DNA from: Acidobacteriota bacterium
GTDB lineage: Bacteria > Acidobacteriota > Blastocatellia > RBC074
Direction of reading: 5' to 3'
Length of the DNA: 58,632 bases
Assembly: GCA_040007715.1 (NCBI GenBank)
Contig: JBDTUN010000311.1
Span: 1-58,632 of the forward strand
The notes under the pieces were generated by a model. The model was not told the origin of the DNA. It searched no databases and saw nothing but the letters and a program-made list of their open reading frames with translations. This document shows positions 23,974 through 26,245 of the stretch, piece after piece (the first letter of the stretch is position 1; the number at the start of each line of letters is the position of its first letter). Both the position numbers and the translations under genes were made by a program.

Positions 23974-25527
23974 ATGGCTATTACTGCAATCGTCTTGATG
24001 TATGCCGCCTTCCTGCTGGTCGGCTGGCTGGCCGCGCGCAAAGTCAAAGACGGTACGCCTGCCGATCTGCTGGTTGCCGGGCGATCAATGCCTGTCTGGA
24101 TTGCGACGCTGACAATGACGGCGACGTGGGTGGACGGCGGCTATCTGCTCGGCACTGCCGAAGGCGCTTTCAAATCGTCGTTGTCTTTGGCTATTCAAGG
24201 CGGATTGTGTTTCGGTATCAGCCTGATTTTGGGCGGCTTGTTTTTCGCGCGGCGGATGCGGCAACTGGAATTCACCACGCTGATTGATCCGTTTGAAAGG
24301 CGTTTCGGCAAACACTGGGCGGTGGTCTTGTTCGTGCCTGCAATGCTCGGCGAAGTGTTTTGGAGCGCGGAACTGCTGGCGGCCATCGGTTCTACCTTTG
24401 GCGTGTTGCTGGGGATGAAGCTGGTGACGGCGATTATGCTGTCCGCGATTGTTGTCATTGCTTATACGATGGTCGGCGGGATGTGGTCTGTGGCTTATAC
24501 GGACGCGTTTCAACTCGGCCTGGTTGTGCTTGGTCTGGCCGTCGCGATGCCGTTTGTCTTCGATGCCGCCGGAGGGTTCGAGGCAAGCTGGTCGAATTAC
24601 CTGGCGGTGCGCGCCGACCGTGGGGGATTCTTTCCGCCGCTGCAACCGCACGGAGATTTCTGGACTTCGCAAACGATCATCGGTTGGTGGGACGTTAGCC
24701 TGATGCTGGTGCTCGGCGGCATTCCCTGGAACTGCTACTTCCAGCGTGTGCTGTCGTGTCAGTCGCCACGCAAAGCGCAACTGCATTCATATTTCGCCGG
24801 TGTTTGTACCATCGTGTTGACGATTCCGCCGTTGCTGCTTGGAGTTGCGGCGTTCAAATACAACTGGCCCGCCGACCTGCTGCGCCAGCTTCAGGAAAAT
24901 CCGTCGCAGACCTTGCCGATGTTGCTCAAACACGTCACGCCGCCATTGGTTGCGTTGCTCGGACTCGGCGCAATCGTTGGGGCGGTAACTTCCAGTTTCA
25001 GTTCATCCATTCTGTCGGCGGCTTCGATGATCAGTTGGAACTGCTGTTACCGGCTGCTGTGGCCGCAGCTTTCCGTGAAGCAGATGAAGCGGATCATTCG
25101 CCTTTCGATTGTGCTGCTGGGCGCGGGTGCAGTGGTGATGGCGCTGAAGGTGCAGAGCGTGCAGGCGCTGTGGTTCTTCACCAGCGACCTGATTTTCGTC
25201 CTGCTCTTTCCGCAACTGGTCTTCGCGCTGTTTGACCCGAAAGCGAACCGAATCGGATCAATCACGGCGTTTAGCGTTTCGCTGGTCTTGCGCCTGGGAG
25301 GCGGCGAGCCATTGTTCAACATTCCACATTTCATCCCCTACCCTGAGATATTTACGAGCAACCCTGCAAGTTGGTACGACGCGCAAACGGGCGCGCTACT
25401 CTTTCCGTTCAAGACGCTGGCGGCGGCGGTCGGCTGTGTGCTGTTGCCTGTGGTATCTCGGTTGACTGCAAAATTTGATCCGCCAAGGCAATTGTCAATC
25501 GCCAACCAAACAACACACGATGGGTAA
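23974..25527 (+). CDS. Sodium:solute symporter family transporter, high-affinity choline transporter (CHT1/SLC5A7)-like
   Basis: 517 aa with about 13 hydrophobic segments. The blocks TMTATWVDGGYLLGTAEG, SLILGGLFFARRMR, YTMVGGMWSVAYTDAFQL, LGGIPWNCYFQRVLS and FPFKTLA closely match my recollection of human CHT1. Confidence 0.8.
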   Translation: MAITAIVLMYAAFLLVGWLAARKVKDGTPADLLVAGRSMPVWIATLTMTATWVDGGYLLGTAEGAFKSSLSLAIQGGLCFGISLILGGLFFARRMRQLEFTTLIDPFERRFGKHWAVVLFVPAMLGEVFWSAELLAAIGSTFGVLLGMKLVTAIMLSAIVVIAYTMVGGMWSVAYTDAFQLGLVVLGLAVAMPFVFDAAGGFEASWSNYLAVRADRGGFFPPLQPHGDFWTSQTIIGWWDVSLMLVLGGIPWNCYFQRVLSCQSPRKAQLHSYFAGVCTIVLTIPPLLLGVAAFKYNWPADLLRQLQENPSQTLPMLLKHVTPPLVALLGLGAIVGAVTSSFSSSILSAASMISWNCCYRLLWPQLSVKQMKRIIRLSIVLLGAGAVVMALKVQSVQALWFFTSDLIFVLLFPQLVFALFDPKANRIGSITAFSVSLVLRLGGGEPLFNIPHFIPYPEIFTSNPASWYDAQTGALLFPFKTLAAAVGCVLLPVVSRLTAKFDPPRQLSIANQTTHDG

Positions 25528-26245
25528 AGCGAAGATTCTGGCTTGGTGCGTTCACGTCTATACGGCGTCCGGCTTGGTCGCCGCCGCCGGGATGGCGTTC
25601 TTTATTGTGCGCGGTGATGCCGAAGCCTTTCGTTGGGTGATTGCGTTGATGATCGTTGCCACATTCATTGACGCGACTGATGGAACGCTGGCGCGGCGGT
25701 GGCGCGTGAAGGAAATCCTGCCCGGTTTTGATGGGCGGAAGTTGGACGACATCGTTGATTTTCAAACATACACTTCGTTGCCGCTGCTGTTTATTTGGCG
25801 TGCGGGTGTTCTGCCAGAGCATTTGAGTTGGTGGTTGTTGCTGCCGCTCTTGGCCAGCGCTTACGGCTTTTCGCAATCCGATGCCAAGACCGAAGACCAT
25901 TTCTTTCAAGGCTTCCCATCATACTGGAACGTGGTGGCGATCTATCTTTACTGGCTGCAACTGCCCGTCTGGTTGGCGCTGGCGTTGATCATTTTGCTGG
26001 CACTGCTGACGTTCGTGCCTTCGTTGTATCTCTACACTTCTTACAAAGGGCCATTCAGCCGGTTGACCAATTGGCTGCTGTTGGGCTGGATGGTGTTGCT
26101 GGTTCTGCTTGTGGCGCAAGTCGCTGATCCCCAGCGGTTGAAGCTGCTGGTGTGGCTGTCGCTAGTATTTCCTATCTATTATTTTGTCCTCTCCTGGGTG
26201 CTCACTTTGCAACGCTGGGCGAGAGGCTCGTTCAAAGGTCTGTGA
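25520..26245 (+). CDS. pcs: Phosphatidylcholine synthase (CDP-alcohol phosphatidyltransferase family)
   Basis: Internal ATG at 25520 gives 241 aa. The motif [27 protein letters not shown] fits DGx2ARx12Gx3Dx3D, the Pcs-type spacing. HVYTASG and [15 protein letters not shown] resemble rhizobial Pcs. The start overlaps the symporter stop by 8 nt. Confidence 0.85.
   Translation: [241 protein letters not shown]

Follow-up and report, generated by a model that had tools for sequence, protein, structure and literature searches.

The DNA analysed here, referred to as the window, is the complete 58,632-nt contig JBDTUN010000311.1 of an Acidobacteriota bacterium. Its forward strand carries a gene for a sodium:solute symporter (SSS) related to the high-affinity choline transporter CHT1 (SLC5A7), and this gene overlaps by 8 nt with a downstream gene for a CDP-alcohol phosphatidyltransferase resembling phosphatidylcholine synthase (Pcs). 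The positions of both open reading frames (ORFs), their overlap and the sequence features discussed below are collected in Table 1. The two ORFs and the overlap could be read directly from the sequence at the positions given in the initial annotation of this locus.

Table 1 Features of the symporter-pcs locus in the window
Feature	Position	Strand	Details
CHT/SLC5A7-type sodium:solute symporter gene, predicted choline importer	23974..25527	+	ATG start, 517 aa
Codons for residues 47-57 (TMTATWVDGGY), unwound transmembrane (TM) segment	24112..24144	+	W52 and Y57 of the choline cage; A50 and V53, Na2 carbonyls; Asp54
8-nt overlap ATGGGTAA	25520..25527	+	pcs start codon inside the final codons and stop of the symporter gene
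Pcs-like CDP-alcohol phosphatidyltransferase gene	25520..26245	+	ATG start, 241 aa
Catalytic motif DX2DGX2ARX12GX3DX3D	25670..25759	+	Pcs residues 51-80; invariant in alignment A3
Second block FQGFPSYWN	25904..25930	+	Pcs residues 129-137; F129, G131, F132, P133, W136 and N137 invariant (alignments A3 and A4)

Gene organization at the junction

Within the junction sequence cacacgATGGGTAAagcg, the symporter gene ends with T-H-D-G-TAA and the pcs gene begins with ATG-GGT-AAA (M-G-K). The homolog N-termini MRRAKFLAWCVH and MSYRKILAWLVH favoured the ATG at 25520 as the pcs start over an upstream TTG at 25475. No obvious Shine-Dalgarno sequence precedes this ATG, and no candidate terminator between the two genes exceeded the shuffled background. 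The pair therefore shows the sequence features of a coupled operon, namely location on one strand, a stop codon that overlaps the next start, and no terminator above background. The stop/start overlap together with the lack of an evident Shine-Dalgarno sequence suggests coupling by termination-reinitiation, and it is the gene overlap from which translational coupling of the two genes is predicted. Two candidate RNA structures were rejected. A hairpin 3' of pcs (26246-26310), considered as a terminator, and a regulatory structure at the junction region (25480-25560) both folded no better than shuffled sequences (z = 0.24 and -0.49, respectively), and for this reason neither a terminator nor a regulatory structure is claimed.

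Family assignment of the symporter

The Pfam model PF00474 (SSF; TC 2.A.21) matched residues 34-432 of the symporter with 112.5 bits (cut-off 22.8, E 2.8e-32). In a phmmer search of PDB sequences, the top match was sfCHT (PDB 9RWS/9RWT; E 2.1e-134, 452 bits), the bacterial CHT homolog of S. flavidum reported in Sci Adv in 2026 (PMC13220886), which is named in the PDB as a solute carrier family 5 high-affinity choline transporter. Human CHT1 (8J74) was matched with an E-value of 7e-89 (302 bits). The other solved SSS members (SMCT1, SGLT1, vSGLT, SiaT, SMVT and NIS) gave at most 44 bits, SMCT1 being the next best, and the NCBIfam models for PutP and PanF scored 67 and 62 bits, far under their cut-offs. 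The symporter shared 46% identity with sfCHT over 503 residues and 37% identity with vertebrate CHT1 over ~500 residues (E 1e-100).

The initial annotation had recognized the likeness to CHT1 from human peptides. All four peptides (TMTATWVGGGYINGTAEA, SLILGGLFFAKPMR, YTLVGGLYSVAYTDVVQL and LGGIPWQAYFQRVLS) were found in P0263, a representative of a vertebrate CHT1 cluster, and the FPQL, GGEP and FPFKTL blocks aligned between the symporter and CHT1. By search scores, its question of whether the protein groups with SLC5A7 or with PutP, PanF and SglT is answered in favour of SLC5A7 (452 bits to sfCHT and 302 bits to human CHT1 against at most 44 to other solved SSS members). The nearest proteins to both members of the pair came from metagenome-assembled genomes of Blastocatellia and other Acidobacteriota, and the JGI automatic annotation named the closest ones "high affinity choline transporter 7" and "phosphatidylcholine synthase". 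By these sequence comparisons, the window symporter is assigned to the CHT/SLC5A7 subfamily, a small family represented by 326 sequences at 50% identity (E ≤1e-30).

Conserved and altered residues of the symporter

Site residues defined from the human structures (PMC11589582) and from sfCHT (PMC13220886) were mapped onto the window protein by alignment, and 71 acidobacterial loci were used for comparison. The choline cage, formed in human CHT1 by W62, Y67, Y91, W141, W254 and W406, corresponds to W52, Y57, F80, W130, W252 and W400, so that five of the six residues are identical. The sixth, F80 in place of Y91, is still aromatic, and the cage residues were the same in 71/71 acidobacterial loci. 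All residues of the Na2 site were kept as well (human A60, V63, A343, S346 and S347; window A50, V53, A337, S340 and S341).

The Na3 and chloride sites differed from those of human CHT1, where D349 is part of the former and G64 part of the latter, a cofactor site (PMC11589582). The human Na3 residues D188, D349 and S350 align with D177, S343 and S344; Ser343 thus replaces D349, in the window as well as in all 71 loci, and the Na3 site is not retained intact. The chloride site, in which the ion is coordinated through the backbone (human G64, G66 and Y67 plus W141), aligns with D54, G56, Y57 and W130, where Asp takes the place of G64; the effect of the D54 side chain cannot be judged from sequence. 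Two further human residues, Q255 and Y407, are changed to N253 and F401. D54, S343, N253 and F80 were invariant in 71/71 loci, F401 was Tyr in one, and these clade-specific changes occurred with or without an adjacent pcs. In the window, the codons of Asp54 and Ser343 lie at 24133-24135 and 25000-25002.

The clade-wide invariance of D54, S343, N253 and F80 suggests altered ion coupling. A more far-reaching proposal, which is tentative and which we regard as rather unlikely, is that the acidobacterial symporters form a mechanistically distinct CHT clade. Asp54 could replace the chloride cofactor, and the Na3 Asp is lost, which would lead to chloride-independent transport with another sodium stoichiometry. 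The supply of choline to Pcs would be one role of prokaryotic CHT homologs, at least in Acidobacteriota. A parallel for Asp54 would be that of bacterial relatives of SLC6, in which a carboxylate takes the place of chloride.

The Pcs-like enzyme

The second protein passed the Pfam model PF01066 marginally (25.0 bits, cut-off 22). Five NCBIfam Pcs models matched it with E-values from 2e-43 to 6e-26, and the best non-Pcs model was that of archaetidylserine synthase (E 5.5e-5); relative to the Pcs models, the E-values of all others were worse by more than 20 orders of magnitude. The motif DX2DGX2ARX12GX3DX3D is the modified motif characteristic of Pcs (PMC3972451). It was found at exact spacing in the window protein (D51, D54, G55, A58, R59, G72, D76 and D80), including the x12 spacer between R59 and G72 from which the initial annotation had recognized the enzyme. 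A profile alignment to PssA structures placed a 3+1-residue gap exactly in this spacer (x12 versus x8), making it four residues longer than in PssA.

Every motif residue of the window protein was invariant in alignment A3 with three pcs products annotated in Pcs-proficient genera (S. meliloti, P. aeruginosa and L. adelaidensis), and an FxGFPxxWN block was also common to all four. The pattern GFP[SC]YWN retrieved 564 Pcs relatives from metagenomes. In BLASTP comparisons, the window protein matched the products of L. adelaidensis (E 9e-39), P. aeruginosa (6e-38) and S. meliloti (2e-26) with 33-37% identity over ~190-230 residues, hence over almost all of its length. These references were taken from a plasmid collection in which they lay on mislabelled chromosomes or on chromids with annotated pcs. 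The PDB yielded no structure of a Pcs: searching with the window protein alone gave no match at E up to 1, and the Pcs profile matched only PssA (E 0.014). From its sequence, the second protein is most readily described as a Pcs-like CDP-alcohol phosphatidyltransferase with phosphatidylcholine (PC) as the predicted product.

Distribution of the symporter-pcs pair in Acidobacteriota

To describe the distribution of the pair, one genome per species was considered. Relatives of the symporter were present in 540 genomes, and the 80 closest (63-92% identity) were analysed. The query was a 9-sequence alignment, used instead of a 26-sequence alignment including eukaryote-like CHTs that proved too diverse for the locus search. 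Six of the 80 symporter contigs were too short to judge. Among the 74 informative genomes, 32 had pcs at most 250 nt downstream of the symporter and on its strand, and another 13 had it 0.5-2.5 kb downstream, which makes 45 within 2.5 kb; in a further three it lay 3.6-8.3 kb away. Scanning from the enzyme instead, a symporter was located directly upstream of Pcs in 31 of 69 informative metagenome contigs, with a gap of at most 116 nt in 30 of the 31. The co-occurrence that the initial annotation had put forward for a survey was thus seen from both genes; the linkage is frequent, not universal.

The junctions of 48 genomes included nine 4-nt overlaps (ATGA-type), three 1-nt overlaps and two 8-nt overlaps, together 14 of 48, as well as twelve gaps of 3-48 nt. 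The two 8-nt overlaps, of the same length as in the window, were those of the loci L002 and L023. Upstream of the pair, at least three unrelated sets of neighbours were observed (ABC permeases and, by eye, cytochrome oxidase subunits and MoxR/DUF58-type genes). The pair is kept while these neighbours change, which argues for more than local synteny. Symporters without a nearby pcs grouped in two subclades of a neighbour-joining tree, suggesting loss or relocation of pcs rather than random scatter.

In the 13 genomes with pcs at 0.5-2.5 kb, the genes identified between symporter and pcs were selfish ones, encoding either an HNH endonuclease or a toxin pair of the PIN type, and the idea that such small intervening genes are additional components of the module was rejected. 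The insert in L001 (11500-12386; also in L006, L007, L012, L014 and L066) consists of a 134-aa ORF and an HNH endonuclease gene, and that in L019 and L021 of a small antitoxin-like ORF and a PIN-domain protein gene. The ABC permease genes at 21749-23958 of the window were likewise rejected as a conserved partner, because outside the closest relatives (L001, L002, L003 and L007) the pair occurs without them. Twelve records carried the titles Heliomicrobium, Heliobacteriaceae or Clostridia (L002, L004, L005, L006, L009, L012, L019, L039, L047, L050, L055 and L066). Their symporters were 71-90% identical to those of Blastocatellia, and the titles look mislabelled.

Neighbours of distant CHT-type genes

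More distant members of the family were found beside several kinds of enzyme genes. A pcs homolog lay immediately upstream, in divergent orientation, of P0245 and P0391 (45% identity to the window symporter) and of P0246 (44%). P0259 (42%) was accompanied by genes for an aldehyde dehydrogenase and a GMC oxidoreductase (betB/betA-like). A Priestia megaterium protein with 64% identity to sfCHT and 42% to the window symporter was adjacent, divergently, to betB and an iron alcohol dehydrogenase gene, and P0243 and P0396 (43%) to a gene for an APH-fold kinase. The occurrence of pcs, betB-type or kinase genes across clades indicates that the CHT family repeatedly adjoins choline-consuming enzymes; the APH-fold kinase beside the 43%-identity clade may be a choline kinase-like partner. 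At one locus (L126, 3313-6490), pcs had no CHT neighbour and was directly followed by genes for an ABC ATPase and a permease-OpuAC fusion, which by sequence are an alternative importer of the glycine betaine/choline type. The pcs loci of S. meliloti, P. aeruginosa and L. adelaidensis had no adjacent CHT-type gene.

Several of these arrangements were located in individual records. A distant CHT-type gene stands beside the aldehyde dehydrogenase and GMC oxidoreductase genes in L089 (2391-6806), and another beside betB and the iron alcohol dehydrogenase gene on the Priestia megaterium plasmid p2_CACC119 (L091, 3457-8512). In L081 (1651-4465) and L175 (8001-12329), a gene of the 43% CHT-type clade is followed by the APH-fold kinase gene and then by an FGGY-family kinase gene. 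At the divergent pcs-CHT locus L174 (4587-7797), an MMPL/RND-type transporter gene follows pcs on the pcs strand, and a PhoD-family phosphodiesterase gene lies 1.4 kb beyond the symporter; these genes may be lipid-export or choline-releasing partners.

Surroundings of the pair in the window

Upstream of the symporter, an SRPBCC (Polyketide_cyc2) gene (22688-23134), which overlaps the next gene by 4 nt, separates two OppB/OppC-type ABC permease genes (21749-23958). Only 15 nt lie between the end of this block and the symporter, and the block has neither an ATPase nor a binding-protein gene next to it. Just before it, at 20002-21666, lies a 554-aa ORF without a Pfam match, and ORFs of 534-571 aa occupy the equivalent position in L001, L002 and L007. 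Two convergent genes at 17081-18250 code for proteins that have a zinc ribbon (CPxC...CxxC) and one membrane-like segment each; they are located at the edge of a stretch of lower GC content (0.48 at 18-20 kb versus ~0.56 elsewhere). Downstream of the pair are a TldD/PmbA-type metallopeptidase pair (29098-30528 and 31281-32633) and a cdaA-ybbR-glmM-type operon (35161-38463; diadenylate cyclase, YbbR and phosphoglucosamine mutase), which are ordinary chromosomal context. The window ORFs annotated (to ~47.7 kb) were housekeeping genes, and no tRNA gene or Rfam family was detected when the window was scanned for them.

Discussion

The locus is best interpreted as a two-gene choline-salvage module in which choline import feeds the synthesis of membrane PC, a reading to which we assign a probability of roughly 0.78. 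Its observed basis is that both proteins can be assigned to their families, that the symporter retains the residues of the substrate and Na2 sites and the enzyme the Pcs motif, and that the two genes are paired in a conserved manner. From sequence and gene context, the function of the pair would be as follows. The CHT-type symporter would take up free choline from the environment, driven by the sodium gradient and holding the substrate in a tryptophan-rich aromatic cage as in sfCHT and human CHT1. The integral-membrane Pcs would then join the imported choline to CDP-diacylglycerol, yielding PC and CMP. Choline as the substrate and PC as the lipid product are predictions, and so are the co-transcription and translational coupling of the two genes. 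Translation of Pcs would probably need ribosomes finishing the symporter, by termination-reinitiation, tying the output of the enzyme to that of the transporter. The polar lipids reported for Aridibacter, Tellurimicrobium and Stenotrophobacter include PC, which has been described as present in many Blastocatellia (PMC12816986). The import-and-consume idea of the initial annotation is strengthened by the occurrence of the pair across acidobacterial orders and in changing contexts, by its divergent recurrence, by the exchange for an OpuAC-type importer at one locus and by PC in Blastocatellia.

Several observations count against this interpretation. No pcs was found in the available flank of the symporter in 26 of the 74 informative genomes, and the symporter was absent upstream of Pcs in 38 of the 69 informative metagenome contigs. 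All five NCBIfam Pcs models, which are lineage-specific, stayed well below their curated equivalog cut-offs (best 148.5 versus 440 bits), which marks the enzyme as a distant Pcs with a merely predicted alcohol specificity. The replacements of G64 by Asp, D349 by Ser, Q255 by Asn and Y91 by Phe could shift ion coupling or substrate preference. Scanned for promoters and terminators, the region 19500-28000 contained no more of them than shuffled sequence did and showed no clear unit boundary. The end of the upstream gene lies only 15 nt before the symporter start, so that the operon or transcript may be longer than the two genes.

One alternative is that the pair handles another head-group alcohol, such as a different small alcohol bearing a quaternary or tertiary amine, or an analogue of choline, and makes a lipid other than PC, for example methylated phosphatidylethanolamine (PME) or another phosphatidyl-alcohol. 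In its favour are the scores under the equivalog cut-offs and the clade-invariant changes at positions to which binding or coupling has been ascribed (D54, S343, N253 and F80, and also F401), and PME has been reported in Blastocatellia, too (PMC12816986). However, the trimethylammonium cage is wholly aromatic with five of its six residues identical, choline-consuming enzymes of three different sets are found beside relatives across the family, an OpuAC-type importer stands in beside pcs at one locus, and PC itself is reported in Blastocatellia. We therefore consider this alternative improbable. Slightly less probable still is that the symporter serves general choline uptake, for osmoprotection or as a carbon and nitrogen source, with Pcs as one of several sinks and the adjacency reflecting loose co-regulation. 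Osmoadaptation and nutrition were the roles proposed by the sfCHT authors (PMC13220886), Bacillaceae and other relatives adjoin betaine-synthesis genes, and pcs is missing from the vicinity of one third of the acidobacterial symporters. In contrast, none of the window ORFs annotated, up to ~47.7 kb, is a betaine-synthesis gene (betA, betB or gbs-type), stop/start overlaps recur in 14 genomes, and the pair persists as its surroundings change.

That the adjacency is inherited synteny without functional meaning was already disfavoured and is very improbable. All 80 closest loci came from a single phylum, as such inheritance would have it; yet the pair persists behind at least three different sets of upstream genes, tolerates inserted selfish genes and reappears, in divergent orientation, beside symporters only 44-45% identical to that of the window. 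The choline-salvage module remains our preferred reading.

As such a module, the often overlapping CHT-pcs pair would offer a concrete and testable answer to the role of prokaryotic CHT proteins in a large soil phylum, namely choline scavenging for PC. The CHT-type symporter would be a fourth kind of choline importer serving bacterial Pcs or other choline users, and the module would help to explain the head-group source of Acidobacteriota, a phylum abundant in soil with PC in its cultured Blastocatellia. Members of the CHT1 family are involved in human disease and are drug targets. The acidobacterial proteins, with an Asp at the chloride site and no Na3 Asp, would be a natural variant for dissecting ion coupling in this family. 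As no solved structure of a Pcs was found, the compact pair could also be useful for co-expression in structural studies.

Comparison with known systems

Among characterized proteins, sfCHT is the closest to the window symporter. In proteoliposomes it catalysed choline uptake driven by a Na+ gradient and blocked by hemicholinium-3 (PMC13220886). The statement of the initial annotation that characterized bacterial choline importers are confined to the BCCT, ABC and LicB types is thereby outdated. The same paper described the physiological roles of prokaryotic homologs as unclear, named no physiological partner of sfCHT and contained no pcs, operon, genomic or neighbour terms (PMC13220886). Both proteins are SSS members of similar length with 46% identity, for which a common LeuT fold is expected from homology, and they share the tryptophan cage (sfCHT W99, W176, W298 and W445) and the Na+ site residues (A97, V100, S385 and S386). 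They differ at sfCHT G101, D388, Q299 and Y126, which are D54, S343, N253 and F80 in the window protein. The sfCHT relative of Priestia megaterium adjoins betB and an iron alcohol dehydrogenase gene, not pcs. Human and vertebrate CHT1 likewise have the same cage and Na2 residues, apart from cage Y91, which is Phe in the window. However, human CHT1 is a 580-aa protein with a long cytoplasmic C-terminal tail that the 517-aa window symporter lacks, and its chloride-site Gly and Na3 Asp are replaced by Asp and Ser. Choline imported by neuronal CHT1 is converted to acetylcholine, whereas that imported by the window symporter would feed a phospholipid synthase.

Choline transporter genes clustered with choline-using enzymes are known from betT with betIBA and from licB with licA, licC and licD; LicB is described in the preprint 10.1101/2021.09.14.460277. 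The window pair resembles these clusters in that a transporter gene stands beside the genes of consuming enzymes. It differs in the transporters, which are BCCT or DMT-type (LicB) there, and in the products, which are glycine betaine or phosphorylcholine decoration. In S. meliloti and Agrobacterium, exogenous choline is imported and condensed by Pcs with CDP-diacylglycerol (PMC3972451). Pcs and ChoXWV of these bacteria share with the window pair the chemistry, the import-and-condense logic and the catalytic motif. The identity between the S. meliloti and window Pcs is only 28-33%, and the importer is the ABC transporter ChoXWV, in contrast to a secondary symporter whose gene overlaps pcs. A full-text search, with most subscription journals outside its coverage, found no literature that connects pcs to transporters of the SSS or CHT type. 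Of the novelty claimed in the initial annotation, the part concerning a bacterial CHT no longer holds, such a protein having been characterized already, whereas the link between CHT and pcs was not found in the literature searched. Choline import coupled to Pcs was previously known only functionally, with ChoXWV, and what appears to be new here is the pairing of the CHT and pcs genes.

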